54,940 nt of DNA from a virus (taxonomy: Duplodnaviria > Caudoviricetes), in the IMG/VR virus record IMGVR_UViG_3300049846_002234, positions 1 through 54,940 of that record; one strand, written 5' to 3'. Each line of letters starts with the position of its first letter. Position 1 is the stretch's first letter. This document shows, piece by piece, positions 2,647 through 43,887 of the stretch. The position numbers and the translations under genes are program-made. Below the pieces are notes generated by a model. It was not told the origin of the DNA. It made no database searches and saw only the letters and a program-made list of their open reading frames with translations.

Positions 2647-4278
2647 ATGGCTACATTCCGTACGTGGGATCGTCAGCACTACCTGCGCGTCTATAACCCG
2701 GCGATCGCGCGGCCCGACGGGCGCCAGGGGCAGCTCTTCGCCGACAGCACCGGCGTCGGCCCGGATGAGATCTTCGAAGTCGTCCCGGCGGGCAGCGACA
2801 CGTTCGGGCTCAAGATCCATGGCGTGTTCGTCTCGATGCAGCCGGACGGGCGGGTCGAAGTGAACCGGCCGAAGCTCCAGTCGTGGGAGCGGTTCCGCCT
2901 GGTGCCGGGAGTCGACGGCGGCCAGGGCATCCGCTCGGTGGCGTGGGGGTATCTCCTCGCGGCCGAACAGGGTGGGGGTGGCGCGGTGACCACTCGGACG
3001 TACGACGCCGCAGAGCCCTGGGAGAGCTTCTTCCCGGTGGGCGTAGGGCTGGGCGGGAACGCCTGGGCGGGTGGGCTTCACGGGGCGATCCGCCGGATTG
3101 GCCCGCGCGCCCTCGGCGACGATCGCGGCCCGCAGCTCTACGCCTCGCTCTCACGCTTCTACCACGGCAGCGAGATCCGCACGAACCCCGATCGCGTGAA
3201 GCGGGACGTGGCGAACGACGTGGCGGTGGGCTACGACGCCGCCCGCGTGCTCTTCCAGGTGGGCTCACTCGACAGCCGGGACTATTGGGCCGGGCACGTC
3301 GCCGATCAGAACGCCCCCGGCTACGAGAACGACGTACGCCGGCTGCTCGACACCTACCGCGCCGGCGGGCTGCGCCTCTCCTCGGCCTGCCTGATCGGCA
3401 AGGGCAACGGCACCGACCGGCAGAGCGTGCGCCGCGCGCACGTCCAGCGTCTCGCCAGCATCATGAAGGACTACCCGGATGTGATCCTGGTGGCGCAGAT
3501 GATGAACGAGCCGACGATCCTGGGGTACGCCAGCGAGGGGGAGCTCCTCGAGCTGGAAGCCCTCTTCCGCCAGATCGCGCCGCGCATCGTCACCAGCACG
3601 GGCGCCTACCCCGACAACGGCTACGGTGAGTCGGTCGACACCTGGGGACAGGTGGGCACCCCGCATCTCCCCCGCGACACCGACAAGAGCGAGATGCAGG
3701 ATCGCCCGTGGCGCCAGCCGTGGGAGATCGCCATGCTCGGGAAGGCGTGGGTGAACGACGAGCCGATTGGCCCGGGCGCCTCGGTGAACAGCGAGCGCCG
3801 GGCGAAGGTACTGCGCTCGCACGCAGCGGTGAGCTACATCAGCGGGGCGGCGAGCTACGTCTTCCACGCTGACGAGGGCATCCGTGGGCTGGGCGATCTC
3901 CCCCAGGTGCCGGGGTACCTCTACTCTCCCAAGGCCAAGCGCTTCCTGCCCGGCGGTCTCGCCAACGGCACGCTGCAGAACAGCAACAGCAACTTCCCGA
4001 ACCGGCATTGGGATCTCGACCCCATGTACTACCGCGCCGGCAACGGCAACACCCGAGGGATCGTCCGCTGCTTCGGCATGCAGCTCGACGGCCGCCAGTA
4101 CACCATCCCCTTCGGGCCGGTGAGCGACTTCGAGCTGATCGCGCGGCGGGGCATGCGTGTTGAGTGTTACCAGCAGGATCTCGGCGAGCAGCTCTGGACC
4201 AAGGGCGTGTCCCCCGGCGAGCGTGTGCGGTTCTCGGGCGAGCACCCCGACTACCTGCTCATTTCCACAGTGCTCTGA
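2647..4278 (+). CDS. Fascin-like beta-trefoil plus clan GH-A-like TIM-barrel glycoside hydrolase
   Basis: Fascin-type repeats (EIFEVV, WERFRLV, YLLAAEQGGG, WESFF); NEP acid/base-like and NDEP nucleophile-like motifs; AGGAG RBS. Confidence 0.7.
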   Translation: MATFRTWDRQHYLRVYNPAIARPDGRQGQLFADSTGVGPDEIFEVVPAGSDTFGLKIHGVFVSMQPDGRVEVNRPKLQSWERFRLVPGVDGGQGIRSVAWGYLLAAEQGGGGAVTTRTYDAAEPWESFFPVGVGLGGNAWAGGLHGAIRRIGPRALGDDRGPQLYASLSRFYHGSEIRTNPDRVKRDVANDVAVGYDAARVLFQVGSLDSRDYWAGHVADQNAPGYENDVRRLLDTYRAGGLRLSSACLIGKGNGTDRQSVRRAHVQRLASIMKDYPDVILVAQMMNEPTILGYASEGELLELEALFRQIAPRIVTSTGAYPDNGYGESVDTWGQVGTPHLPRDTDKSEMQDRPWRQPWEIAMLGKAWVNDEPIGPGASVNSERRAKVLRSHAAVSYISGAASYVFHADEGIRGLGDLPQVPGYLYSPKAKRFLPGGLANGTLQNSNSNFPNRHWDLDPMYYRAGNGNTRGIVRCFGMQLDGRQYTIPFGPVSDFELIARRGMRVECYQQDLGEQLWTKGVSPGERVRFSGEHPDYLLISTVL

Positions 4279-4528: not shown

Positions 4529-4783
4529 ATGGCGGACGATCCCCTCTTCCGCGATCAACGCACCGAGGCTGGAGCCCTCCTCCGCTCCGGCCTCGATCTC
4601 GTCACGCAGATGGAGATCCCGCCCGGCAAGACGCTGGTGGGCGTGGTCGTTGCCGACAAGGATTCGCGCGTCCTGGGCTTCGCCGTACGCACCGGCAAGG
4701 GCTGGGAGTTCCATGGCCAGGTCTCGCAAGAGGTGGCGGCGGGGAAGAAGGGGATTCGCGCGACGCTGGCGGTGGTGATCTGA
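4529..4783 (+). CDS. Small protein, helix plus four amphipathic beta-strands
   Basis: Alternating hydrophobic strands LVGVVVAD / VLGFAVRT / WEFHGQVS / IRATLAVVI. Confidence 0.65.
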   Translation: MADDPLFRDQRTEAGALLRSGLDLVTQMEIPPGKTLVGVVVADKDSRVLGFAVRTGKGWEFHGQVSQEVAAGKKGIRATLAVVI

Positions 4784-5205
4784 TGGAGCTGCCCCTCCTG
4801 CTTGCGGGACAGGCGGATCCTCCACGCTTCCGCTTGCATGAGGTGGACGACCCGATCTACAAGGTGCGTCTCTGCGTGTGCCATGGGCCGGAACAGGCAT
4901 TCTGCGACGACGTGAACACCACGATCCAGGATGACCAGCCGATCACCCCGCACCCTGGCGCGGCCGCGCGCTCCTGTGTGGCGCGAACGCCGGCTGGCCA
5001 TCTGCGCGTGTGGATCTGGCTCTCTTCCGACCAGCCCACCCCCGACCGGGCGCGCGTCGCGGCCCTCGTCGCCCATGAAGCGCTCCACGGAGCACTCGGC
5101 GTCTTTCAGGCGATCGGGCTCGCCCCCACCAAGAAGAGCGAGGAAGCCCTCACCTACTACGTGGAGTGGCTGACGTACGAAGCGCTTCAGTACCTCTGGG
5201 GATAG
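4783..5205 (+). CDS. HExxH metallopeptidase-like protein
   Basis: VAHEALH motif followed by EEALTY third-ligand helix; TGATG coupling. Confidence 0.65.
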   Translation: MELPLLLAGQADPPRFRLHEVDDPIYKVRLCVCHGPEQAFCDDVNTTIQDDQPITPHPGAAARSCVARTPAGHLRVWIWLSSDQPTPDRARVAALVAHEALHGALGVFQAIGLAPTKKSEEALTYYVEWLTYEALQYLWG

Positions 5206-5208
5206 CCT

Positions 5209-6570
5209 GTGTATCACCCCGAAGTCGTCGCCGCCCGCTTCGCCCAGATCCTCGCCTCCCCCATCGGCGCGGCGTTCAAGGCGCAGTTCGGCGGCGCCCC
5301 CGCGCCTCTCCCCGCCGACGAGTGCCACCGGCGCACACGCCAGCTCGCGGCGATCTGGGATGCGAAGAAGGGTGCCCCCTCCCGCCGACTCACCGAGGAC
5401 GAGCAGCGCTTCGTCACCAACGAGCGCATCCTCAGCAAGATCGACTACCGCTACTTCGCTGAGCGGTACTCCTTCATCATCCACCCCGCGAAGGGTCTCA
5501 CCCCGATCTTCCCGCTCTTCACCTCACAAGAGCTGATCCTCGCGGCTATCGCGCGGGTGGAGTACGAACGCTGGCAGGCCGGGCACCCTGACGGGCTCCT
5601 CTGCAACATCCTCAAAGGGCGGCAGCTCGGCGCGAGCACTCTGTGCCAGTCGATCCTGGCGCACCGGGTGATGACGCAGACCTACACCAAGGGGCTGATC
5701 GCGTCCGACGTGCCGCAAAACTCCGGCTCCACGGGTCTGTTCGGCATGCTCGAGCTCACCGTGGAGCACTGCCCGTGGTGGTTGAAGCCGGGCGAGCAGT
5801 ACCACACCAAGGACCATCACATCGTCTTCACCAATCACGCCTCGGTGATCGTGGAGTCGGGTAAGTCGATGAAGGGGGCGCTGCAGGACGACGGCGGCAG
5901 CAAGGGGCAGATCGGGCGCAGTAAAACCTACTCGATCGCGCATCTCTCGGAGCTCTCCACCTGGGAGAACGCCGGCCAGATCGATGACGCGCTCATGCCG
6001 GCGATCCCGATGACGCCCCGCACCTTCATGGCGAAGGAGAGCACGGCCAAGGGGCGCCACAACTGGTGGCACAAGGAGTGGCTGACTACCCAGGCCGGCA
6101 ATGGGCGCAGCTTCAACATCTTCATCCCCTGGTACGCCGAGCGCAGCAAGTACTGGGCACCCTGCCCGACGAATTGGGATCCGCCGGACTTCGTGATCGC
6201 CTACGCCGCCCGCGTCGCCGAGCATGGCCCGCGCTGGATGGGGGGAGAGAGCTACCGTCTCTCCAAGGAACAGCTCTACTGGTACTTCCTGCAGCGCCGC
6301 GCCGCCGAGGACAAGGGGACGCTCTACAAGTTCCTGGAGGAGTACCCGGCCGAACCCGAGGAAGCGTTTCAGTACTCCGGGCGCAGCATCTTCACCCCCG
6401 CCGAGATCGACTACCTCCGCAACCGGGCCAAGCCCGCACGGATGGTGTACCGCGTCCTCCCCAACACCCTCATCGCGGACTTGCGCGACCACGCCCTGTC
6501 CCCGCAGGATCTCGAGGACGAGCTCTCAATGCCGGCGCACACCGCCGATGTCGCTGAGGAGATGACCTGA
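5209..6570 (+). CDS. terL: Terminase large subunit, N-terminal ATPase half
   Basis: LKGRQLGAST Walker A, HLSELSTW Walker B-like, ESTAKG motif III, FIPWY and EEYP..PEEAF..SG; ends before the nuclease domain. Confidence 0.9.
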   Translation: MYHPEVVAARFAQILASPIGAAFKAQFGGAPAPLPADECHRRTRQLAAIWDAKKGAPSRRLTEDEQRFVTNERILSKIDYRYFAERYSFIIHPAKGLTPIFPLFTSQELILAAIARVEYERWQAGHPDGLLCNILKGRQLGASTLCQSILAHRVMTQTYTKGLIASDVPQNSGSTGLFGMLELTVEHCPWWLKPGEQYHTKDHHIVFTNHASVIVESGKSMKGALQDDGGSKGQIGRSKTYSIAHLSELSTWENAGQIDDALMPAIPMTPRTFMAKESTAKGRHNWWHKEWLTTQAGNGRSFNIFIPWYAERSKYWAPCPTNWDPPDFVIAYAARVAEHGPRWMGGESYRLSKEQLYWYFLQRRAAEDKGTLYKFLEEYPAEPEEAFQYSGRSIFTPAEIDYLRNRAKPARMVYRVLPNTLIADLRDHALSPQDLEDELSMPAHTADVAEEMT

Positions 6571-6713
6571 TGCACCACAAGCGCCGCCGCCCGAAGTCTC
6601 GTCGTGCTGGCTGTTGTTGCGGTGGGAAGTGGGCCAAGCAGGAATGGGCACCCAAGTACTACCGGGTGAAGGGGCTCCGTGGCCCGCGCAAGAAGCGGGA
6701 TCTGGAGGACTGA
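6570..6713 (+). CDS. Unannotated 47-aa basic, Cys3-containing ORF between the TerL halves
   Basis: MHHKRRRPKSRRAGCCCGGKWAKQEWAPKYYRVKGLRGPRKKRDLED; GAGGAG RBS; TGATG overlaps at both ends. Confidence 0.65.
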   Translation: MHHKRRRPKSRRAGCCCGGKWAKQEWAPKYYRVKGLRGPRKKRDLED

Positions 6714-7699
6714 TGCCCCCCGCCGCTCGCGGGCTCCCCCCGCTCCCACGCAAGCTGGCCCGTCTCACCGATGACCTGGCGATCATTCCCCAGGGCTACG
6801 GCTTCCTGCCGCTCGCCCTGCGGGATCTCCTCCCTGGCGGTCCCCACGCCGACGGGCTAGGGCTCTGCGCGATCTACGAGCCCCCGCTCCGGGGGTTCAA
6901 GTACGTCGTCGCGGCCGACATCAGCGACGGGCTGGGCAAGGATCGCACCTCCATCGACGTGATCCGGCAGGGGACGGTGGCGCGGACGGAAGAGCAGGTC
7001 GCCCACTTCATCTCGGATCGGGTGAAGCCGCGCGAGGCGGCCTTCATCGTGGATGCCCTCGGACACCTCTACTGCGACGATGAGGGCCGGGAAGCCTGTG
7101 TCGCCATCGAGACCAACAACCACGGGCTCAGCACCCAGGACACCTTGCGCCTCCACCTCGGGTACCGGCACTTCTACGTGATGGAGCATGTGGGCGCGGC
7201 CGCGCACGCCAACCGCTTCAGCGCCCGGGAAGGGTGGTACACCACCCAGCGCACGCGCCCGATCGTGCTCGACCACCTCTACGAAGCGCTCACCACCTAC
7301 GACCCGGTGACCGGCGAGCCGGATCTCCTCATCAACTCCCCGCACACCTTGGGGGAGCTGCACGACTTCCAGACCGACGGAGCGCTGGCGGATGCGGCTG
7401 CCGCCGCTGGCGCGCATGACGACTGCCTGATGTCGCTCGCCATCGGGCACTACGTGAGCTGGCGGCTGGCCGGCGGAGAGCGGGAGCCCCTGGCCGATCG
7501 GCGCCGGCGCCTGCGTATGATCGAGCAGCGCCGCGCCTCCCTCTCTGCCTACGACGGGAGCGGCGCCAGCTACCAGACCATGCCGTACACCGAAGAGGAG
7601 ATCGCCCAGGTGCAGGGGGGCCGGGTGGATCGCCTCGACCCTGAGCTGGAAGAGCTCCTGTACGATCTCCGGGGAGAGACCTACGATGGCTTCTACTAA
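6713..7699 (+). CDS. terL: Terminase large subunit, C-terminal RNase H-like nuclease half
   Basis: IYEPP..YVVAADISDGLGKDRT, IETNNHG, HDDCLMSLA; ATG at 6713 with GGAGGA RBS, in frame with ORF 6614..7699. Confidence 0.88.
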   Translation: MPPAARGLPPLPRKLARLTDDLAIIPQGYGFLPLALRDLLPGGPHADGLGLCAIYEPPLRGFKYVVAADISDGLGKDRTSIDVIRQGTVARTEEQVAHFISDRVKPREAAFIVDALGHLYCDDEGREACVAIETNNHGLSTQDTLRLHLGYRHFYVMEHVGAAAHANRFSAREGWYTTQRTRPIVLDHLYEALTTYDPVTGEPDLLINSPHTLGELHDFQTDGALADAAAAAGAHDDCLMSLAIGHYVSWRLAGGEREPLADRRRRLRMIEQRRASLSAYDGSGASYQTMPYTEEEIAQVQGGRVDRLDPELEELLYDLRGETYDGFY

Positions 7700-8945: not shown

Positions 8946-11072
8946 ATGCCTTCGTACTCTCCTGCAGGGTTCCACGACTTCCCGGTGATGTCGGATGACG
9001 CGCTCAACGGGCGGGATCCGCGCTACAACTCCCGTCTGATGGGGTGGTTGGACGAGGCGATCGCCGAGGGCGACGGCTTCATTCAGCAGGATCCGAACTA
9101 CAACCGCATGGCCGAGGGGATGGCGTACGTCTCCGGCGACCACAAGCTAGGGTTGCAGGGGATCGCGCCGGGCACGCTCGGCGACATCGAGAAGTTCTCA
9201 CTCAATCTCTGCCGGCGGGCGGCACAAGCCCACGTCTCAGCGCTCACCGATCTCAAGCCGACCTTCGGGTGGCGCTCGCTGAACCCCAAGTACGCGCCCA
9301 CCGCCGATCTCCTCAACAAGCTGACGATCGCGTGGTACCTGAACAACATGGCGGATGTCGCCTTCGCCGACGTGATGAAGATCGCCTGGGCGTGTGGCAC
9401 GGCCGACATGATGATCGAGTGGGATCACCAGAAGCAGGATCACCTGGTGATCGCCAAGGATCCCCGGGACACCCTGCCGATCCGGCCCTCGCGCTACGGT
9501 GGGGTCCAAGCCTGGCAGGGGGTGATCTTCCGCGAGGTGCATTCGGTGAACGTGCTGCGGGACATGTACCCGCACCACGCAGGGTACATCGTCCCCACGG
9601 CTGACGGGCTGCTCGCCTCGATCAAGGGGCTCTTCCAGCGCATCGCACCCCCCATGCAGTCTCCCGGTGGGGACACCCTCTCAGGGCTCTCGGGCATGCC
9701 GCGTGGCGCCGGCCCGGTGCGTTCGGGGGATGTCCTCTACTACCGCTGCTATCTCACCGATCGCAGCCGCAACCTCAAGAGCACCCCGGTGGTCGTGGGC
9801 GACCCGACCAAGCCGTGGGCGTACACGGTAGAGCCGGGCGATCTCCTGTACCCCAACAAGCGTCTCATCATCCGCACCGACCGCGCGGTGCTCTACGACG
9901 GCGGGGCGCCGTACCTCCACGGGCTCTACCCATTCGTGCGCTTCATGCCCTGGCGCCTGCCCTGGTTCTTCTTCGGGCAGTCGGCACTCGCCGATCTCAT
10001 CCCGGTGAACGATGCGATCAACCGTCTCGGGCGTGGGGTGCTCCTGGGGCTCGAGCAGTGGCTCAACCGTTCGACCGTGATCGACACCAACGCCGTCGGG
10101 GAAACGGCGGCCCGGGTGTACAACGCACGCCGGCCGGGACAGAACATCAAGCTGCGCGGGCAGGTGATCGATGTCGAGAAGGCGTTCCGGCCGATCGACG
10201 GGCCACAACCACAGGTGCTGGCGCTGGCAGGCACGACCCTCACCGAGCTCACCGCCCGGTTTGAGTCACTCGCTGGCACCGGCAACCTCGAAGCCCTGCA
10301 GCAGCTTAAGCAGCTCCCCGCCGAGGGCACGATCGAGAAGTTCTACCAGGCGATGACGCCTGAGCTGCGTCTGGAAGGGCGCATGTTTGAAGCGTTCCTC
10401 CGCGACGCCAGCCAGCAGATCCTGCACAACAGCCTGCAATTCCAGACCTCCGCCAAGCGCATCCACATGCTGGGGGATGCCGGGGCGACCCTGGAGGACT
10501 TCGATCTCGAGCCTGGCACGCTCCTTCCGGCGATGTCGGCGACGGTCACCGACCCGATGACGGGGATGCCGGCGCCCAACCCCGACTACGACCCCGCCTT
10601 CGACAGCACCATCCCCCGGGACGTGCGCGCGAAGGCAATGGCGAAGCTGATGGCGTTCGTCGTGGCGCCCAACTCGGTCCTGGCCTTCAACGCCCAGGAA
10701 GAGAAGATGATGGACTTCCAGCTCGCCCGCATGGGGTACCTGGACATCTGGACGCTCATGGAACGGCTGGAACGGCCCAACATGGGGGCGCCGCCGCCGA
10801 TCCCGCTGCCGCCGCTCAAGCCGCCGACGACGCCAGAGGAGCTGCAGGAAGGGCTGATGTCCGGGCGCTTCGTCCCCAACCCGACCCAGCCGGGGACGGT
10901 GCTCGAGATGCGGTCGCCGCTCACCATCACCGAACGGCTGATGGCCCAGCAGATGCTGGGGATCGGCATGACGCAGAACCCGGCCGGCCGCAAGGCGACG
11001 GGCGGGGATTCGCCCAAGGTCGAGGAGAAGGACGGCGGGAGCCGGACCACCGTCACAGAAAGCGAGAAGTAG
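8946..11072 (+). CDS. Portal protein (podovirus/P22-like)
   Basis: 708 aa between TerL and scaffold/capsid; YPFVRF..W...WFFFGQS...DLIPVNDAINR pattern typical of portals. Confidence 0.85.
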   Translation: MPSYSPAGFHDFPVMSDDALNGRDPRYNSRLMGWLDEAIAEGDGFIQQDPNYNRMAEGMAYVSGDHKLGLQGIAPGTLGDIEKFSLNLCRRAAQAHVSALTDLKPTFGWRSLNPKYAPTADLLNKLTIAWYLNNMADVAFADVMKIAWACGTADMMIEWDHQKQDHLVIAKDPRDTLPIRPSRYGGVQAWQGVIFREVHSVNVLRDMYPHHAGYIVPTADGLLASIKGLFQRIAPPMQSPGGDTLSGLSGMPRGAGPVRSGDVLYYRCYLTDRSRNLKSTPVVVGDPTKPWAYTVEPGDLLYPNKRLIIRTDRAVLYDGGAPYLHGLYPFVRFMPWRLPWFFFGQSALADLIPVNDAINRLGRGVLLGLEQWLNRSTVIDTNAVGETAARVYNARRPGQNIKLRGQVIDVEKAFRPIDGPQPQVLALAGTTLTELTARFESLAGTGNLEALQQLKQLPAEGTIEKFYQAMTPELRLEGRMFEAFLRDASQQILHNSLQFQTSAKRIHMLGDAGATLEDFDLEPGTLLPAMSATVTDPMTGMPAPNPDYDPAFDSTIPRDVRAKAMAKLMAFVVAPNSVLAFNAQEEKMMDFQLARMGYLDIWTLMERLERPNMGAPPPIPLPPLKPPTTPEELQEGLMSGRFVPNPTQPGTVLEMRSPLTITERLMAQQMLGIGMTQNPAGRKATGGDSPKVEEKDGGSRTTVTESEK

Positions 11073-12863: not shown

Positions 12864-13922
12864 ATGCCGTTTTCCCCGCAGCTCGATGAACTGAACACCG
12901 TCACCCAGAAGATGATCATGCCGGGGACGGCGGACAACTACTTCCGCTCCGGCCCGCTGATGTCGAAGCTGAAGACCCGCTTCAACCGGCGCTGGAACGG
13001 CCCGCAGATCCAGGAGAACTTCCTGTACGACGCCCCGAAGGGCGCCGCCTACGCGCGAGGCGGCAACTTCGGGCCGCAGACCCGCAAGCAGACCAAGACG
13101 GGCCTGCTCTTCAACGCCCGCTACTACCAGATCTCGGTGGTGGAATACCTCGAGGACATCGAGGTGGAGCTGGCCGGCCCGCAGGCGGTGTTCTCGACGG
13201 TGCGCCAGGATCTGCGCGAGGCGGCGCTCGCTATGTCGGCGATGCTCGAGATCGCGGCCTTCCGGCACGGTCAGAACGTCGGCAGCGACAATCGCTCGCT
13301 CGAGATCAACGGTCTCGAAGAGGCGATGACCGACGGCAGCAACCAGACGTGGAGCGGCAACACGTTCCCGAGCTACGGCGGCCAGACCCGCACGGGTGTG
13401 GGCAGCGCCCTCAACAGCCCGACGGGCTTCATCTCCAACCCGTCGAACGCGACGATGAGCTACCGGCTCCTCACGCACACCTACAACTCGTGCGTGCTGG
13501 GCAGCCAGTACCCCGACACCGGCATCACGACGAACCGCTGCATGGCGTTCATGAGCGAGACGTTCCTGCCGCACCAGCTCGTGGACACCAAGGATCCCGA
13601 GATCGCCTTCCCCGGCCTGAAGTTCCAGAACGCGACGATCATGCAGTCGCAGTACTGCCCCGGGCAGGACGGCGTGAACGACGACAACATCGGCAACTAC
13701 AACGCGGCGGGTGAGACGTTCTGGTGGCTGAACTTCGGTCCCCAGGGCGACGACGCGCACATCCGGCTGTGGATCGCGCAGTCGCCCAAGTTCGCCTTCG
13801 GCTTCACCGGCTTCAAGGGCGCGCAGGACAACAACACGCTGGTGGGGCAGACGCTCTTCGCCGGCACCATCACCAACCGCATGCCGCGTCTGCACCGGAC
13901 GATCTACGGCATCACCGGCTAA
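12864..13922 (+). CDS. Major capsid protein (HK97 fold)
   Basis: 352 aa; ADNYFRSGPL, INGLEE, GLKFQNA, TNRMPRLH patterns; strong codon bias; position after scaffold. Confidence 0.88.
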   Translation: MPFSPQLDELNTVTQKMIMPGTADNYFRSGPLMSKLKTRFNRRWNGPQIQENFLYDAPKGAAYARGGNFGPQTRKQTKTGLLFNARYYQISVVEYLEDIEVELAGPQAVFSTVRQDLREAALAMSAMLEIAAFRHGQNVGSDNRSLEINGLEEAMTDGSNQTWSGNTFPSYGGQTRTGVGSALNSPTGFISNPSNATMSYRLLTHTYNSCVLGSQYPDTGITTNRCMAFMSETFLPHQLVDTKDPEIAFPGLKFQNATIMQSQYCPGQDGVNDDNIGNYNAAGETFWWLNFGPQGDDAHIRLWIAQSPKFAFGFTGFKGAQDNNTLVGQTLFAGTITNRMPRLHRTIYGITG

Positions 13923-36747: not shown

Positions 36748-39700
36748 ATGCCGAAGGGCGCTCCACCTCCTGCCCCGCCTCCGCCGGATCAGCTCAAGGC
36801 GCTCGGGATCAACCAGCCGGCACCGCAGCCCAAGGCGACCTACGCCGATCTGGTGGAGGCGGTACGCCTGGCCTACCCTGGCCGGTACGACGACGAAGAT
36901 CCGACCGCCCTCGCCGAGAGCGTGCTGGAGGTGTACCCGCATCTGCGCGATGCGATCGACCCTGCCACGCGCGGTATGGAGCTCCTCCCCTCGCATGAAG
37001 GAGGGCCGCGCACCAGCCGCGATTTCGTCCGGGGGAAGGGTCCGAACGAGTGGCTGCCCAAGCCCCCCACGCCGACGCCGGTCGGGACGCCGGAAGAGCG
37101 GGCGGCCACACTGAACAACCGCACGCCGGCCCTCTTCTCCGGCGATACCCTCATCACCAGCGGCCTGCGCGTGGGCGGCAGCATGGCGGGCGGGCTGGCT
37201 GGCACGGCGATCGCCGCCGCGACACTCAATCCCTTGGCCGTCCCCGCTGGGCTCTTCGCCGGCGGGTCGGCGGGTGAGGCGGCCGCTCAGCTCTACGAGC
37301 GGGAAGCCGGCATCTCCGAAGAGATCTCCCCCTGGAACGTCATCGCGCAGGGCGCCCTCAACACGGTGCCGGTCGCACGGGGTGCCAAGGCCGGGGCGGC
37401 GGGCATGGCGCGGTTGGTCGGCGCCAACGCCGTCAGGGGCGGGGCGGTGCGGCGTGGCGCGGCTGCTGTCGTCAACGCCACCCGCAACACCCAGCTCCCC
37501 GCGCGGATGCTGAGCAACGCCTTTGAAGGAGCGGTGACCAGCGCCGGCGGCAACGCACTGGAGCTCGGCTTCGAACAGAACCGCCTCCCCACCCTCGAGG
37601 AATCGGCCGCCGCCTCCCTGGCCGGTGCCGGGTTCGGCGCGGCCTTCACCGGCGGTGGCGCCCTCTACGACAAGGCGAAGGTCGTGCGGGCCAAGCCGGT
37701 CCTCAAGGCCGCGCACGACGTGATGGACACCTTGGATCTCTCCCGGGGTGGCACCCCGCTGCCGTCAGAGGCGTGGCAGGCGGCCAGTGCCCCGGTGATC
37801 GAGGCGATCCAGAAGGCCAAGAAGCTCGACCCCGAGGGCGGGCAGGCGGCGTTCCAGCGCCTCCTCAGCATCCTCGACGGGCAGCATCAGGCCGGGCTCC
37901 AGACCAAGGCGGCAGCGTTCCTTCAGGGCTTCGCCGAGAAGGCCGAGGCCATGAGCGATGGGGCACGGCTGGATCTCGCCAAGCAGCTCCTCGATCGGGT
38001 GAAGGCTGACGGGCTGAACGCTGAGGGACTGGACGAGGTGATCCGTACCCTGGCGGGGATTGATACCAACGCCCGAATGTCCCAGGCGGCGGGTGGGATG
38101 AAGCTGCTGCCCCCGGCGCCCCCGGAGAACATCCTGGGCGCGGGCGGCAAGGACATCCTGCCGGTGGAGCCTCGGTACGCCGAAGGGCCGGGAGGCCCGC
38201 CGATCGAGGTGCTCCCCGAGGGCGAGGTGCTCGTGGGCGCCCGTACCGACCTGCAGGGGCCGCCGCCGCTCGTCGCCGACCAGCCGCAGGGTCCACGTCC
38301 GGTCGTCACCGGCCGACTGCGTGAAGCCGCCCCGCTCCCGCCTGAGCCTCCGCCGCCACCTGTCGACTGGCGGCAGGCGGAAGGCCCAGAGCAGGTAGCC
38401 GCCCGCATCGAGGGCCAGCGCTTCTCCCGGATCGCCCAGCAGGGCACCACGGCCGAGGTGGCGCGCGGGCTGGCGGGGGTGGATCGGGCGCGTCTTGCGG
38501 GGGCCGAGCAGCCGCTGCTGGGCGGGCTGCCCCCGGAGCCGGCGCTCAACTACAACTTCGACCCGCGCCCGCCGGAGGCGCCGGCGCCGCGCGCCATTCC
38601 TGGCGAGCAGACGGGGGTGGATGCCCTCTACCCGGTGCGTGCAGGCACGATCGATCGGGAAACCGCGATGTGGCTGCGGGTGGTGCTGGCCGATCTCAAG
38701 GAGTTCGGCTACCAGGAGCCGGGGAAGCACAGCAAGGGGGTCGCGGCGGATCGCGCGCAGGAGCGCTACGACGGAGGGTCGGCCTTCTCCAAGAACCAGG
38801 CAGCCGCCCGGGTCGGCGGCAGCAAGGTGGCCCGGACCATCGCCCTCATCGCAGGAGGCGACCCGGAGAAGCCGGGGGCGCCGGCGCTCAAGGAGCAGAT
38901 CGAGAAGTTCCTCAACGGGGAGCAGGTGACGCCCTCCCCGCGCGTGGCGGCGGCGATCAAGTACGCCGCGCTCCTCAAGCAGGCGTGGGACGGCAAGAAG
39001 CTCACCAGCGGGAACCTGTTGCCCAAGCACCTGCGGGGCGCCGGGCTCGTCAACGCGAAGCTGAACGACGTGTACCTCCCGACGCTCCCGCCCTCGGTCG
39101 CGCTGGGACTGGACGAGGCGGACGATCTCCTCGCGCAGTTCGCCCCCGAGGTGCTGGCGACCAAGCAGCGTATGCAGGCGGAGGTGGCGGCCGATGATGG
39201 GACGCCGGCGTACACGCCCCGGGCGGGCGAAGCGCCGGAAGGGGTGCGTCAGTTCCTCGCCGAGCTGAGCCACGACGACCTGAAGATGCTCCACGCCGAG
39301 CTCCTGCAGCAGGGGCCGGACGCCGCGCAGCACCGGGGGTGGGTGGCGGATGCGCTCGAGCAGCGCGGGATCGCCCGTCCCGAGCAGGGCATCCTCACGC
39401 CTGAGAGCCTGCCGATGCTCCCGCCGGAGCCGGGTCCGCGCCTGTTCGATCTGGAGGCGGCCGCTAGTGGTGAGGTTCCACGTGGAACCCCAGATGTTGT
39501 GGAGGGCGCGGGCGCACGTGCTGAGGTGCCTGCTGAGGAGCCCTACACCCCGCCGGTGAGCGACCTGCCGCCGGGGCATCCCGACGCGCCGCCCGACATC
39601 CCGCCTTTCGACATCCCGGAGGGGAAGCTCCGCGTGCGTCAGGCGAGCACAGGCGCCTGGGAAGTCACCGTCGATGGCGAGCTGGCAGCCACGGTGACGC

Positions 39701-42700
39701 GCGAGGCCAACCCCGACGCGCCCAAGCCCTGGCGGATGTCGGTGGTGGGCCCGGATGGGGAGCTCGTCGCCAAGAGCCAGCATGCGACCCTGGACGAGGC
39801 GGCGCGGCGTGCGACGGCAGCGGTGCGGGAAGTGCCCACCGGACGCGATGGCTTCCCTTCCCTCCTCTCCGACGAATCCGGCGCGGTCGGCACCCCGGCC
39901 CAGCGTGCCGCGTCCCGTGCCCGCTCGCTCAAGGCGCTGGCCGATTCCCCCGGCGCCCGGCGCGACTTCCGCATGAGCGAGGACACGCTCGCGCAGGTCC
40001 GCAAGGTCATCGCCCAGGCCGGCGAGGCGGAAGAAGCCGGGCTCCTGGTGGGTACCCCTGACGGGCAGATCCGGCGCGTCATCCGCAGCCGCAACACCGC
40101 CGCCGACCCTGCCACGACGTTCGAGATCGACCCGCGCACCATCGCCGCGACCCAGAAGCGGGCGGCGGCTGAGGGGCTCGTGGTGCTGGGGAGCTGGCAC
40201 AGCCAGCCGACCGGGAGCGCCCAGCCCAGCAAGGCCGACCTCCAGGGCGGCGTGGCCGACCTTCCCATGCTCATCATCGGCGCCAAGGAGGGGGAGATCC
40301 GCGACGTGCGGGTGTGGCAGCCCCAGGGGAAGTCCGCGTGGACGGAGGGCAGCCTCGACATCGGCGAGCTCACCCAGCGCCCGGGGAGCAACATCCCCAC
40401 CACCAAGAAGAGCGTCCTGGCGACCATCCGCAAGATCCCCCGCTTCACCGGGGCGATGGGCGATGACGTGGCGCTGGGGAAGTACCTCTCCGCGCACGAG
40501 CGCGAGCTCTCCACCGAGCCGTTCTTCCACAAGGCGCAGGCGGCCCTGGCGGCGGGCAACCCCCGGAAAGCCTGGCTGGAGCTGCAGATCGGGCAGGTGG
40601 CGTACGGCAACCTCACCAAGGCGGCCGCCGAGAACCTGCCCCACCAAGAGTCGCTCGCCATCGGCAAGCAGATCGCCGCCCTCGAAGCCACTGGCGCGCA
40701 ATCGCCGGCCGGCCAGCTCTGGGCGCTCTACGACGGGCGCACGGTCTGGGTCGAGGGCGTGGGGCGCATCGTCGCCACCCCGGACCTGCCACCGGCGCTC
40801 AAGGGGAAGGGTGTGACGGCGGGCCCGGGCGGCATCCTGCGACCGCCGGCGGCGACTGAGGCACTCCCGGATGTGGCCGCGCGTGACGCCCTCACCCTCG
40901 AGGTGGTCAACGATGTCCTCAGCGATGTCAAGGCGTCGGGGGTGCTGGACGACCCCACCAAGGAGGCCGGAACGCGCCTCTTCCGGCAGGTGGCCGAACA
41001 GATGCTGTTGCAGCCGGCCCGCTTCAAGGCGATCAACGCGCTGGGGGCGGACCTGTCCCCGGAGCAGGTGGCCGCGCACTTCACCGAGACCGTGACGGAG
41101 AGCGCGCGGATCCTGGCGGCGCTCAGCGCCTGGAAGCGCGAGCACGCCGAGGGCATCCGTCGTATCGAGGGGATCACCGGCGCCAGTGGGAAGGTCGAGG
41201 ATCTGGTGGTGCGCGGCAAGGGGCGCACGGTCGGCAAGCTGAGCGAGCTCTACAAGGCCGAGACGCTCGACGCGCTCACGCAGGGCGCCGGGAACTCCTG
41301 GGATCGGGTGATCCTGCTACAGACGCTCACCCCCGGGCAGATCAGCGCCTTCGATCAGCTCGGCCGGGCGAGCCGGGGCTTCATGCTCAGCCAGTGGTCG
41401 ACGGCGCTCCGCAACGTCTACAGTGCCACCGGGCGCTGGGGGAGCGAGGCGAGCGACGCCGTACTCAAGGGGCTGGCCTACACCACCACCGGCGATTTCG
41501 GTAAGGCCAAGGCGGCGTACGCCCGGGCGGGCGACCTCCTGCGCTACGCCCCGATCCTCCGCCCTGACGGCTGGGTGATGCCGTGGAAGGCCCGCTCGAG
41601 CGAGTGGGAGACGATCTTCACCACCAGCGGGCAGTTCCTCGGCATGGGGAAGGACCGGCAGGCGGTGCTCGCCGCGCTACGTGCGGTGCCCGACAAGGCC
41701 GCGACGTTCCTCGGCGGCACCGGGTTCGGCGAGCTGCGCCGGCAGGGACAGAGCGCCAGCTCCATCCTGAATTGGGCCGCCAGCGAGAAGGTGCAGCAGA
41801 CGCTGACCATGTTCAACCGGGCGCAGGAGTACACCATCCGCTCGGCGATGCTGCACGTGGCCCTGAACGAGCAGCTCCGGCTGCGCGGACTCGATCCGCA
41901 CACCGCGCTCAGCCTGCCGCCCGACGCCCTGCGCGCCCGACTCGGCGAGGATGCCTACACCCAAGTGTTCGATCGCGCCGTCGGCGAGGCGCTGAACTTC
42001 ACCTTCGCGGGGGATCTCATCCACAAGGGGTACGGCAAGGACATGCTCAACCGGCCGCTGGGGGCCCGGAACACCGCCATCATCGACGTACTCAACAAGT
42101 TCCCGCTGGTCCGTGAAGGCTATCCCTTCGCCAAGTTCAACCTCAGTGCCGCGCCACGCTACCTGTGGGATCACTCGGGGATCGGGTTGCTGGTGGAACC
42201 GCTCTACGCCAAGGTGTCGAAGCGGGGGCGCTACCATCTCGGCACCACGGGCAAGCGATTCCGCGACGTGCTGATCCCGGAGATCGATCAGAAGGTGGCG
42301 GCGGCCAACAGTGAGATGGGCACGGCGCTGCTGAAGTGGCAGGCGGTGAAGGATGAGATCACCGCACGCCGGCGCCTGGACGCGCAGTACAAGAAGCTGA
42401 GTGTCGAGCAGGCGGAGCTGCCGGGCGTGCAGGACAAGATCCGCGCGAACCGCACCGTCCTCAACAGCCTCGAGGCGAAGAGCATGGAGGCGGGCGACGC
42501 CTACCTCGCCGCAGACACCAACCTCAAGAAGCTCCAGGCGCAGAAAACGACCCTCGCTGAAACGGTCGCGCAGGCAGCGGCGGCGGATGCCCCCGAAGAC
42601 TTCGCCACGCTGTTCGCGCGCAACATGACCGGCGCGGCTGTGATGTTGCCGCTCGCCATGATGATCCGCGCCGACCAGAAGGATCAGGGCGTGCCCTGGT

Positions 42701-43887
42701 ACAAGGTGAAGGTGAGCGAGAACCACGCGCTGGATCTCCGTCCCTTCGCGCCGTTCGTGCAGTACCTCTTCGTCGCCGATGTGCTGCAGGACTTCTACGA
42801 CAACACCAATTGGGGGGCGGTCAGCGAGGATCTGGATCTCGGGAAGTACTCCTGGGACAACATCGGCGACGCCTTCTTCAAGGGTGGGCACTACGACGGG
42901 CAGTACTCCGCCGATGACATCGCCAAGGGGCTGCTGATGATGGTGGCCGCCCCGCTGCAGGATCTGGTGGAGTTTCCCAGCAGCGTGTACCAGTTCTACG
43001 AGGGGAAGTACACCGCCAAGAGCCTCGGCAAGGAGCTCTCCACCGTCCTCTTCTCCACCAGCCAGATCGCCGGCACGACCCTTTCGGTGGTCGAGGCGCT
43101 GGCCGACATCACCACCGAGGGGCTGCCTGGGTCCGAACGCCTGAGCAACCTGGCGACGAACACCGTCGGGCAGATGCTGGCCCGCTTCACCATGCCCTTT
43201 GCACAGTTCAAGGGGTTGAGTGCGCTCTACGACGAGGAGGAAGCGTACGCCCGCATCGCCGACCAGGGCGAGGACTTCAGTGCCGCACCCCTGGGGCAGA
43301 TGTTCGGCAACCTGCCCTTCATCGGGGCGGCGATGATCCCCGAGACCTACAACCAGCTCACCGGACAGCCGCTGGCGACGCAGTACCCGGCGATGCGGAG
43401 TCTCCTCGGCGTCACCATGAGCTCGTGGGACACCATCAGCGGGGAGATCACCAAGATCGGTATGCCGGGGCAGTCGGTGTACATCCGCAAGACGGGAGAC
43501 ATCTACGTCGACAAGCTGGTGGGGTACCACTACGCGCGCCTGATCCAGCAGTACCTGCCGCAGGTGCTCGAGAACGAGAGCTACAAGCGCCTCGATTCGG
43601 CAGCCCTCAAGCGGGATGTGATGGGGAAGATCCTGCCGAAGCTGAAGAAGGCCGCGATCGGCTACACGGCGCAGGATCTGGGCGCGGAGCGTATCAAGGC
43701 CGCGCAGGCGGGGAGTGAGACGCGCCGGCGGCAGGTGCGTGTGGAGCGGCTGCAGCAGCTCCTGGCGGACGAGGGGCTCAGGGATCTGGCGCCGGAAGAG
43801 CCGGAGGAGCCGGAGGAACCTGAGGTGCCGGAGGTCGAGGAACCCGATGAGGTAGAATCGACCTCAACAGAACTGCCACCGCAGTAG
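36748..43887 (+). CDS. Giant ejection/polyvalent protein with internal JAB/MPN domain
   Basis: 2379 aa; Gly/Ala hydrophobic N-region; EEAGLLVG..N......FEIDP..VLGSWHSQP...PSKAD at ~39970-40330; helical C-region. Confidence 0.8.
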   Translation: MPKGAPPPAPPPPDQLKALGINQPAPQPKATYADLVEAVRLAYPGRYDDEDPTALAESVLEVYPHLRDAIDPATRGMELLPSHEGGPRTSRDFVRGKGPNEWLPKPPTPTPVGTPEERAATLNNRTPALFSGDTLITSGLRVGGSMAGGLAGTAIAAATLNPLAVPAGLFAGGSAGEAAAQLYEREAGISEEISPWNVIAQGALNTVPVARGAKAGAAGMARLVGANAVRGGAVRRGAAAVVNATRNTQLPARMLSNAFEGAVTSAGGNALELGFEQNRLPTLEESAAASLAGAGFGAAFTGGGALYDKAKVVRAKPVLKAAHDVMDTLDLSRGGTPLPSEAWQAASAPVIEAIQKAKKLDPEGGQAAFQRLLSILDGQHQAGLQTKAAAFLQGFAEKAEAMSDGARLDLAKQLLDRVKADGLNAEGLDEVIRTLAGIDTNARMSQAAGGMKLLPPAPPENILGAGGKDILPVEPRYAEGPGGPPIEVLPEGEVLVGARTDLQGPPPLVADQPQGPRPVVTGRLREAAPLPPEPPPPPVDWRQAEGPEQVAARIEGQRFSRIAQQGTTAEVARGLAGVDRARLAGAEQPLLGGLPPEPALNYNFDPRPPEAPAPRAIPGEQTGVDALYPVRAGTIDRETAMWLRVVLADLKEFGYQEPGKHSKGVAADRAQERYDGGSAFSKNQAAARVGGSKVARTIALIAGGDPEKPGAPALKEQIEKFLNGEQVTPSPRVAAAIKYAALLKQAWDGKKLTSGNLLPKHLRGAGLVNAKLNDVYLPTLPPSVALGLDEADDLLAQFAPEVLATKQRMQAEVAADDGTPAYTPRAGEAPEGVRQFLAELSHDDLKMLHAELLQQGPDAAQHRGWVADALEQRGIARPEQGILTPESLPMLPPEPGPRLFDLEAAASGEVPRGTPDVVEGAGARAEVPAEEPYTPPVSDLPPGHPDAPPDIPPFDIPEGKLRVRQASTGAWEVTVDGELAATVTREANPDAPKPWRMSVVGPDGELVAKSQHATLDEAARRATAAVREVPTGRDGFPSLLSDESGAVGTPAQRAASRARSLKALADSPGARRDFRMSEDTLAQVRKVIAQAGEAEEAGLLVGTPDGQIRRVIRSRNTAADPATTFEIDPRTIAATQKRAAAEGLVVLGSWHSQPTGSAQPSKADLQGGVADLPMLIIGAKEGEIRDVRVWQPQGKSAWTEGSLDIGELTQRPGSNIPTTKKSVLATIRKIPRFTGAMGDDVALGKYLSAHERELSTEPFFHKAQAALAAGNPRKAWLELQIGQVAYGNLTKAAAENLPHQESLAIGKQIAALEATGAQSPAGQLWALYDGRTVWVEGVGRIVATPDLPPALKGKGVTAGPGGILRPPAATEALPDVAARDALTLEVVNDVLSDVKASGVLDDPTKEAGTRLFRQVAEQMLLQPARFKAINALGADLSPEQVAAHFTETVTESARILAALSAWKREHAEGIRRIEGITGASGKVEDLVVRGKGRTVGKLSELYKAETLDALTQGAGNSWDRVILLQTLTPGQISAFDQLGRASRGFMLSQWSTALRNVYSATGRWGSEASDAVLKGLAYTTTGDFGKAKAAYARAGDLLRYAPILRPDGWVMPWKARSSEWETIFTTSGQFLGMGKDRQAVLAALRAVPDKAATFLGGTGFGELRRQGQSASSILNWAASEKVQQTLTMFNRAQEYTIRSAMLHVALNEQLRLRGLDPHTALSLPPDALRARLGEDAYTQVFDRAVGEALNFTFAGDLIHKGYGKDMLNRPLGARNTAIIDVLNKFPLVREGYPFAKFNLSAAPRYLWDHSGIGLLVEPLYAKVSKRGRYHLGTTGKRFRDVLIPEIDQKVAAANSEMGTALLKWQAVKDEITARRRLDAQYKKLSVEQAELPGVQDKIRANRTVLNSLEAKSMEAGDAYLAADTNLKKLQAQKTTLAETVAQAAAADAPEDFATLFARNMTGAAVMLPLAMMIRADQKDQGVPWYKVKVSENHALDLRPFAPFVQYLFVADVLQDFYDNTNWGAVSEDLDLGKYSWDNIGDAFFKGGHYDGQYSADDIAKGLLMMVAAPLQDLVEFPSSVYQFYEGKYTAKSLGKELSTVLFSTSQIAGTTLSVVEALADITTEGLPGSERLSNLATNTVGQMLARFTMPFAQFKGLSALYDEEEAYARIADQGEDFSAAPLGQMFGNLPFIGAAMIPETYNQLTGQPLATQYPAMRSLLGVTMSSWDTISGEITKIGMPGQSVYIRKTGDIYVDKLVGYHYARLIQQYLPQVLENESYKRLDSAALKRDVMGKILPKLKKAAIGYTAQDLGAERIKAAQAGSETRRRQVRVERLQQLLADEGLRDLAPEEPEEPEEPEVPEVEEPDEVESTSTELPPQ
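43790..43852 (+). repeat. Degenerate 9-nt tandem repeat encoding an acidic PEE tail
   Basis: ccggaagag ccggaggag ccggaggaa cctgaggtg ccggaggtc. Confidence 0.7.
43853..43858 (+). promoter_or_regulatory. TAGAAT -10-like element (copy 5)
   Basis: GTAGAATC upstream of the 43904 gene. Confidence 0.45.

Follow-up and report, generated by a model that had tools for sequence, protein, structure and literature searches.

The stretch of DNA analyzed in this work, referred to as the window, is a linear IMG/VR record of 54,940 bases from an uncultured phage, with a G+C content of 67.8%, which is 80% complete as estimated by CheckV. In this window, the large terminase subunit (TerL) is encoded by two genes, and a third, very small gene lies between them. 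We found that the large terminase of this virus very probably consists of two polypeptides, made from two translationally coupled genes and held together by an arm of the first chain, with a cargo gene at the gene junction. Judged from the sequences of the window and its relatives, the two-gene layout is real and inherited; we infer that both chains are produced, that they assemble via the arm and that no fused chain is formed. The three genes are as follows.

5209-6570, + strand: TerL ATPase chain gene (453 amino acids [aa], GTG start, TGA stop at 6568-6570; matches PHROG families phrog_2 and phrog_5989)
6570-6713, + strand: inserted 47-codon gene (ATG start; fills the gap of 143 nucleotides [nt]; product very basic)
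6713-7699, + strand: TerL nuclease chain gene (328 aa, ATG start, RNase H-like, long C-terminal tail; matches phrog_2 and the terminase family phrog_24361)

In the list of open reading frames (ORFs), these three follow one another with one-base overlaps, and the frame moves by one at each step, from 5209-6570 to 6570-6713 and from there to 6713-7699. A single TerL polypeptide is not what the region encodes, as it contains the stop codon at 6568-6570, the change of frame and the intervening 47-codon ORF. The PHROG profile phrog_2 (terminase large subunit, 807 positions) was matched by the ATPase ORF at positions 256-466 (E value, 4.4e-08) and by the nuclease ORF 6713-7699 at positions 478-617 (E value, 8.7e-05). 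Since successive stretches of one profile match each of them, the two ORFs represent colinear halves of TerL. Pfam searches with the three ORFs yielded nothing useful, the lone match being to DUF1554 below threshold.

A phmmer search of the ATPase half against PDB sequences returned no match, and a fold search was therefore needed. The AlphaFold2 model of the 453-aa chain, built from an alignment of 39 homologues, had a predicted local distance difference test (pLDDT) score of 90.4. Its best Foldseek match was the ATPase domain of T4 gp17 (E value, 5.3e-14), followed at lower ranks by the TerL ATPase domains of P74-26, HK97, D6E, and Sf6. When the structures were compared with VIA-align, residues 38-391 of the model were superimposed on gp17 residues 72-360 with a Z score of 24.1 and a root mean square deviation of 3.2 over 277 residues. 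In an alignment of 39 ATPase-only homologues (A2), K136, R138, E248, and E277 are invariant, and S278-T279 are conserved at 90% or more, which makes E277 and its neighbors a candidate for the coupling motif. The features of the chain are listed below.

5614-5640, + strand: Walker A-like P-loop, residues 136-144 (K-G-R-Q-L-G-A-S-T), K136 and R138 invariant in A2
5941-5952, + strand: Walker B-like H-L-S-E, residues 245-248, E248 invariant and H245 nearly so in A2
6382-6483, + strand: conserved C-terminal arm, residues 392-425, past the end of the alignment with gp17 1-360
6484-6567, + strand: acidic variable tail, residues 426-453, net charge -7, holding the ribosome-binding site of the next gene

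Judged by known TerL motifs, residues 136-144 presumably form a deviant Walker A motif, and E248 of the Walker B-like motif is what we take to be the catalytic glutamate. The gp17 fold match and the invariant motif residues identify the N-terminal additional strand, conserved glutamate (ASCE) P-loop ATPase of a TerL. At the other end of the chain, residues 443-453 of the tail were modeled with a pLDDT below 50, and the tails differ among relatives.

Some relatives carry in-frame insertions of about 250 to 350 residues in the ATPase domain, found at three sites, after residue ~142 (P-loop), after ~243 (Walker B region), and after ~379. They occur in L005:3257-4000, P0004, P0006, P0007, P0012, P0039, and others. 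The insertion of P0039 matches Intein_splicing, LAGLIDADG_3, and Hint_2, i.e., it is a true intein located away from the gene break; that of P0007 shows a weak LAGLIDADG hint only, and that of L005 has no Pfam match.

The nuclease chain was matched by phmmer to the nuclease domain of RB49 gp17 (PDB 3c6a; E value, 8.1e-05). Acidic residues aligning with those of RB49 are invariant in an alignment of 12 nuclease sequences (A3).

6917-6919, + strand: candidate catalytic Asp D69, invariant in A3, aligned with the Asp of the RB49 nuclease strand
7109-7111, + strand: candidate catalytic Glu E133, invariant in A3, aligned with the RB49 IELN motif
7418-7423, + strand: candidate catalytic Asp pair D236-D237 (H-D-D), invariant in A3, aligned with RB49 H-D-D

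A catalytic role for D69 is presumed from T4 gp17 data. At the sequence level, the match to RB49 and the conserved acidic residues identify the nuclease domain of a TerL, and the chain would have an RNase H-like fold.

Where the break falls could be defined by comparison with one-chain relatives. These have a variable stretch of 15 to 40 residues between a conserved block on the ATPase side and one on the nuclease side, the latter opening with a P-P-L-P...I-P-x-G-Y-G-F motif, and both the stop and the start in the window map inside this stretch. The earlier note on this DNA, made from the letters alone, had placed the break in the inter-domain linker; this holds insofar as the break is inside the variable linker stretch of one-chain relatives, but the structural hinge is elsewhere. 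Equivalent to gp17 residue 360, the last residue of the ATPase fold is about residue 391, and the gene stops 62 residues further on. Thus, the gene break is not at the T4-type ATPase/nuclease hinge. The arm formed by residues 392-425 is conserved in split and one-chain forms alike.

When the ATPase and nuclease chains were submitted to complex prediction, the pair scored 0.71, compared with 0.00 for the best of three controls. In calibration, 58 of 80 solved complexes and 2 of 110 mismatched pairs scored this high, counts that apply only roughly here since the prediction was run with alignments of our own. The runs agreed in at least 69% of contacts, with a partner pLDDT of at least 65. All confident contacts of the ATPase chain fell within residues 392-425: residues 410-414 are predicted to run antiparallel to nuclease residues 52-55, and helix 400-407 to pack on nuclease residues 193-216. 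In the model, therefore, the arm is predicted to clasp or complete the nuclease domain on the other chain; what such a prediction scores is likeness to TerL-like packing, not binding.

The two junctions are built from the same kind of elements.

6556-6561, + strand: GAGGAG Shine-Dalgarno-like motif, 8 nt ahead of the ATG at 6570
6568-6572, + strand: first TGATG overlap (ATPase stop, small-ORF start)
6704-6709, + strand: GGAGGA Shine-Dalgarno-like motif, 3 nt ahead of the ATG at 6713
6711-6715, + strand: second TGATG overlap (small-ORF stop, nuclease start)

These positions bear out what the earlier note had read in the window, namely, that the ATPase half stops at 6570 after an acidic tail (the last 28 residues have a net charge of -7), that the nuclease half restarts at 6713 in another frame behind its own GGAGGA and that both junctions are TGATG couplings. 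Its proposal of a naturally two-chain packaging motor stands in that the two-gene, presumably two-chain, split is conserved; the gap between the halves is not a spacer but a conserved 47-codon gene. In relatives lacking an insert, the GAGGAG copy serves the nuclease start directly, and the 3' end of the window insert is a second copy of this motif-plus-TGATG signal.

The small product contains 17 Lys plus Arg, 4 Asp plus Glu, and three adjacent Cys residues. An orthologue with 87% identity occupies the same junction in a related locus, L010. Over 45 codons, the two small ORFs have 21 identical codons, 18 synonymous differences, and 6 nonsynonymous ones, and the frame of the ORF itself is conserved at 39 of 45 positions versus 21 of 44 and 23 of 44 for the other two frames. 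Because synonymous differences prevail and the other frames are poorly conserved, the codon comparison indicates that the 47-codon ORF is a coding gene under purifying selection. Among 5.8 billion proteins, relatives were found only in its own cluster and in one orthologue cluster, and no lead was obtained from Pfam, PHROG, or the ESM Atlas. Membership of the product in a broader family of small basic proteins that share its type of N terminus could not be confirmed, and the idea was dropped. It is a matter of speculation that the protein might bind nucleic acid or act together with the acidic tail of the ATPase chain.

Conservation of the split was then assessed on DNA. When viral contigs were scanned using the ATPase chain as the query, 12 close loci (57 to 93% identity) were obtained. 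Each of the 12 has a stop in the ATPase frame and a nuclease encoded in a different frame, for which a start codon is present at the junction. The form of the junction varies: TGATG or TAGTG in L002, L003, L005, and L011, and GTGA or TTGA in L004 and L008, whereas the genes overlap slightly in L012 and by 56 nt, after a 22-nt deletion, in L001. In L006, L007, L009, and L010, a small ORF separates the halves, and the nuclease frame is closed within the inserts of L006, L007, and L009. The offset between the frames of the two halves also differs among relatives, with both +1 and -1 occurring. Two distant ATPase-only representatives used as queries gave 20 further loci, including 15 split (L014-L028) and 5 one-chain ones. 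As for genome contigs, a first scan found no locus and a second found seven, only two of which were close enough to inform; these two, L035 and L036, are also split and lie on contigs binned with metagenome-assembled genomes (MAGs) of Gemmatimonadales and Binatia, labels that give weak hints of the hosts. The search of related phages for a conserved split, proposed in the earlier note, thus gave a positive answer: among the 40 loci checked on DNA, the window included, 30 are split, 7 are one-chain, 2 are unclear, and 1 is a fragment. Its view that the split had evolved and did not arise by a single-base error was sustained by the 12 close relatives and the distant clades, where the junctions vary and whole genes are inserted.

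The halves are directly coupled at 18 of the 30 split loci and have other genes between them at the remaining 12. In L007, a Tad2-like gene (Thoeris anti-defence 2; PF11195; E value, 1.1e-24; L007:1923-2144) is located exactly between the terminase genes, and in L016 (4757-5251) and L017 the place is taken by a free-standing HNH_3 endonuclease gene (E value, 7.3e-13). The nuclease gene of L023 (G001:C1:19444-24986), which belongs to a complete genome of 58,606 bp with terminal repeats, follows the ATPase gene at a distance of about 3.5 kb, and an HTH_3 regulator and several ORFans are found between them. Several ORFans occupy the junction slot in other lineages.

Two unrelated junction inserts, L006:5398-5649 (83 aa) and L021:4706-5113 (135 aa), both start with a twin-arginine-like R-R-x-F-L followed by a hydrophobic stretch, which suggests small exported proteins; neither insert matched a known family.

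To place the window in its family, 1.84 billion representative proteins were searched by HMMER with the ATPase chain, which gave 3,040 proteins at an E value of ≤0.001. The best 150 of them include 82 one-chain proteins with the nuclease domain, 15 fragments, and 53 that, by their length, are ATPase-only and stop 1 to 39 residues past the ATPase domain. The rarity implied in the earlier note was therefore overstated, with 53 of 150 family representatives being ATPase-only and a cultured Arthrobacter phage annotated alike (see below). On a FastTree phylogeny of 136 ATPase domains, from which the nuclease columns were left out, 21 changes of state are needed, and branches with good support make at least 9 of these unavoidable; after shuffling, 42.5 changes were required on average, and none of 500 shuffles came as low as 21. 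The window clusters with two ATPase-only representatives, and the sister pair, 63% and 59% identical to it, is one-chain. In the phage collection, cultured relatives of the window TerL are at most ~30% identical, and no cultured member of the split clade of the window was found. Cultured matches falling under a feature named terminase are single features, as in Tunturiibacter phages, where both halves match one 'terminase large subunit', while many other cultured matches, whose records were not opened, fall under 'hypothetical protein' or other labels.

Sequence support came from assembled contigs, not raw reads, that were compared with the window. A 47,781-base contig from run X1, which is possibly the source sample, is identical to the window over 6100-7100 (0 differences; depth, 45), and a contig from the independent run X2 covers 6439-6662, and thereby spans the first junction, again with 0 differences. 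Runs X3 and X4 gave short pieces only, and neither junction was bridged. The mapping over the junctions that the earlier note had called for is accordingly answered in part: the X1 and X2 contigs agree fully with the window, but they are contigs rather than reads and the second junction has no independent cover.

These results lead us to propose how such a terminase would work. Chain 1 (453 aa) would comprise a full T4-gp17-like ATPase domain, the hinge, a conserved arm of ~35 residues, and the acidic tail, and chain 2 (328 aa) an RNase H-like nuclease that carries the acidic active-site residues and ends in a long C-terminal tail. As the break is in a variable loop, the inter-domain hinge would remain covalent, and with the arm gripping the nuclease chain noncovalently, the enzyme would act as a nicked TerL. 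Such behavior would allow easy, repeated switching between the one-chain and two-chain forms in the family. Once turned into an intergenic junction, with overlapping stop and start codons and the ribosome-binding site in the upstream tail, the loop could serve as a harmless landing site for small cargo genes, which would be coexpressed there with the late packaging genes. In the window, this cargo would be the strongly basic 47-residue protein, flanked by the duplicated motif-plus-TGATG signal. The idea of a nicked TerL fits with the destruction of translocation in T4 gp17 that was artificially split at the hinge, as described in passages of PMC3012670.

Several observations weigh against this proposal. 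For the second junction (6711-6715), the only coverage comes from X1, the probable source run. No RNA run is listed among the sequencing runs that contain window DNA, and expression of three separate products is deduced from the gene layout. The ATPase-only label of the 53 representatives was assigned from protein length alone, with a DNA check in some clades only, and a single-protein scan with the ATPase-only representative P0033 found no locus. The tree was built with FastTree only and is unrooted, and it does not give the direction of each change. As for the pairing, the complex score may stem from likeness to solved one-chain TerL structures, and the model of the nuclease chain alone was poor (pLDDT, 47.8). 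Finally, no stop codon interrupts the nuclease frame anywhere in the inserts of the window and L010 (in the window, the frame is open from 6566), and in these two a fused chain could result if ribosomes occasionally shifted by -1 over the final ATPase codons.

The first alternative is that the two chains form no stable pair, so that the ATPase chain alone is the translocating ring and the nuclease chain is a separate protein recruited to cut at the start and the end of packaging. Motors of the phi29 type operate without a working nuclease. Halves lying up to 3.5 kb apart, as in L023, and the tolerance of unrelated cargo at the junction would suit this arrangement, as would the varied activity of isolated nuclease domains from different phages noted in passages of a 2026 review (PMC13595956). 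On the other side are the interface predicted through the conserved arm (0.71 versus 0.00), the direct coupling at 18 of the 30 split loci, an arrangement suited to making both chains in equal amounts, and the loss of translocation upon hinge cutting of T4 gp17 (PMC3012670, in the part cited above), which points to a mechanical role of the C-terminal domain. We consider this alternative unlikely, though worth bearing in mind.

Another view concerns the reason for the split, not its form. It would be that TerL splitting and junction cargo are moves in the contest between phages and host defence, which we regard as a long shot. TerL is bound by Avs-type bacterial sensors, which read features of both of its domains. 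The ATPase model could be superimposed on the terminase chain of 'Avs3 bound to phage PhiV-1 terminase' (PDB 8dgc) with a Z score of 16.6. If the idea were true, two chains could blunt Avs-type sensing of TerL, and the frequent switching between one-chain and two-chain states (9 to 21 changes among 136 representatives) would be the signature of an arms race. The junction would then be a privileged slot for counter-defence genes such as the Tad2-like gene in L007, and the basic, cysteine-rich product of 47 residues would represent a new factor acting in counter-defence or in association with packaging.

A third explanation is recoding, in which a programmed frameshift or translational bypass fuses the frames and the working enzyme is a normal one-chain TerL. 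In its favor, the window and L010 have a nuclease frame that is free of stops from shortly before the end of the ATPase gene to the end of the insert, and a precedent has been published for Streptomyces phage Hau3, where, according to passages of PMC10732093, terminase interruptions consisting of 7- to 10-nt noncoding blocks after rare UUA codons inside conserved motifs are bypassed and one chain is made. Like the phage of the window, Hau3 is high in G+C and has a large terminase coding sequence spread over different frames; the window differs in that the break is in a variable segment, is provided with ribosome-binding sites and start codons, and holds whole genes. Fusion is further contradicted by the mixture of +1 and -1 offsets among relatives, by inserts of 143 nt to 3.5 kb that are full genes with their own starts, by the closed nuclease frame in the L006, L007, and L009 inserts, and by the start codon present at the junction for every nuclease ORF. 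The insert read in the nuclease frame is conserved at 23 of 44 positions versus 39 of 45 in the frame of the small ORF itself. Moreover, no landing codon that would match ACC, the last sense codon, occurs ahead of 6713, no slippery heptamer is present at 6556-6570, and no structured RNA was evident at the junction: an RNA family search of 6300-7000 returned nothing of note except a snoRNA match below threshold, and the junction RNA folds less stably than its shuffles (z = +2.61). We therefore judge recoding very unlikely. A Hau3-type recoding block as such was rejected, the 143-nt interval being a selected ORF that has neither landing codon nor slippery heptamer to yield a putative fused chain.

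Two other mechanisms that join split products were tried and rejected as well. For a split intein at the terminase break, Pfam revealed no intein or Hint family in either half, in line with the remark in the earlier note that no intein termini are visible, and the flanks match the linker of one-chain relatives. For a self-splicing intron in terL, the sub-threshold snoRNA match and the z value of +2.61 were all that was obtained, and relatives lacking the insert are still split. An assembly or sequencing error, or a defective remnant phage with a broken terminase, is scarcely credible even for a single metagenome-derived record of 80% completeness compared with contigs and not raw reads, given the same layout with conserved starts in 29 other loci from many samples, the full-length conservation of both halves with invariant catalytic-type residues, the depth-45 contig with 0 differences and the independent contig across the first junction, and a 100%-complete relative with terminal repeats (L023) that is also split.

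Our preferred reading, a terminase of two arm-held chains, can be compared with known systems. The one-chain TerL of the T4 gp17 type (PDB 2o0j, 2o0h, and 3cpe; RB49, 3c6a) has the same two catalytic modules in the same order near a portal gene. The window departs from it in having two genes, presumably for two chains, with a break 62 residues past the equivalent of gp17 residue 360 and an ATPase chain that bears an N-terminal extension as well as the C-terminal arm. Closer in layout is the Arthrobacter phage KellEzio (KU647626.1), in whose GenBank record gene 4 is annotated 'terminase large subunit, ATPase domain', gene 10 carries the label 'terminase large subunit, nuclease domain', and five genes separate the two; in passages of Klyczek et al. 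2017 (PMC5513430), the two terminase-related genes are dealt with in one sentence. As in the window, the two domains are there encoded by separate coding sequences, and this in a cultured, plaque-forming phage. KellEzio is a siphovirus of an actinobacterium with an ATPase piece of 260 aa, and unlike the relatives described above it shows no detectable relationship to the window, with hhalign probabilities of 1.9% for the ATPase and 3.9% for the nuclease. Since hhalign finds no relationship between the pieces, we read the two splits as being of independent origin.

Fractured genes likewise consist of two separated pieces of a phage gene that flank a small gene. In passages of PMC2677866, their halves carry split inteins, with parts of 88 to 105 and 33 to 54 residues, and a free-standing endonuclease gene is located between them, one such locus being a gp17-like terminase. 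The window clade resembles them in its layout and in the HNH endonuclease gene of L016 and L017; the window itself differs in having no intein halves and no room for parts of 88 to 105 and 33 to 54 residues, and the terminase halves around the HNH_3 gene of L016 and L017 likewise lack intein halves.

A literature search on a terminase or TerL that is split or encoded by two genes, which did not cover supplementary files, found no analysis of a two-chain TerL and no study of how the two chains of KellEzio work. Matches on split or separate wording concerned inteins, other split proteins, and unrelated uses (PMC7156551, PMC7824862, PMC7911831, PMC8008677, 10.1101/2021.05.26.445827, and PMC9865981), and in passages of the 2026 review (PMC13595956) TerL is described as two domains on one chain and the word 'split' does not occur. 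The two-gene terminase layout is thus not new, having already been annotated in a cultured phage, and it is essentially unstudied; new here are the inserted 47-codon gene and the role proposed for the arm.

Models of the packaging motor assume a one-chain TerL in which the ATPase and the nuclease communicate via a covalent linker. Natural two-chain enzymes beside one-chain sisters at ~60% identity would provide matched pairs with which to probe the purpose of that covalent link, and our prediction is that the break is tolerated because it comes after the conserved arm with which the ATPase chain would clasp the nuclease chain. Small accessory genes, among them a homologue of a Thoeris counter-defence gene, seem to have settled at the junction repeatedly, and such junctions would be a place to seek new phage cargo. 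Pipelines and TerL phylogenies that expect one gene will mislabel or truncate two-gene terminases.

The terminase genes are situated in the head and packaging region of the window, near the portal-like ORF 8946-11072, and the neighboring genes with assignable products are as follows.

8946-11072, + strand: portal protein gene (PHROG phrog_1216, portal; E value, 1.8e-05; Pfam SU10_portal; E value, 1.6e-04, under the curated cutoff)
12864-13922: major head protein-like gene (phrog_9953; E value, 9e-08)

Directly upstream of the ATPase gene, a 140-aa ORF (4783-5205) matches phrog_1365, a family of unknown function (E value, 1.1e-09), and its position suggests a candidate for the small terminase. 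A 543-aa ORF (2647-4278) upstream of the packaging genes has no PHROG match, and no tRNA gene was found anywhere in the 54,940-base window. Further along, ORF 36748-43887 encodes a protein of 2,379 aa that is matched only by minor tail protein families, at residues ~1050-1208 (phrog_30; E value, 3.1e-13).

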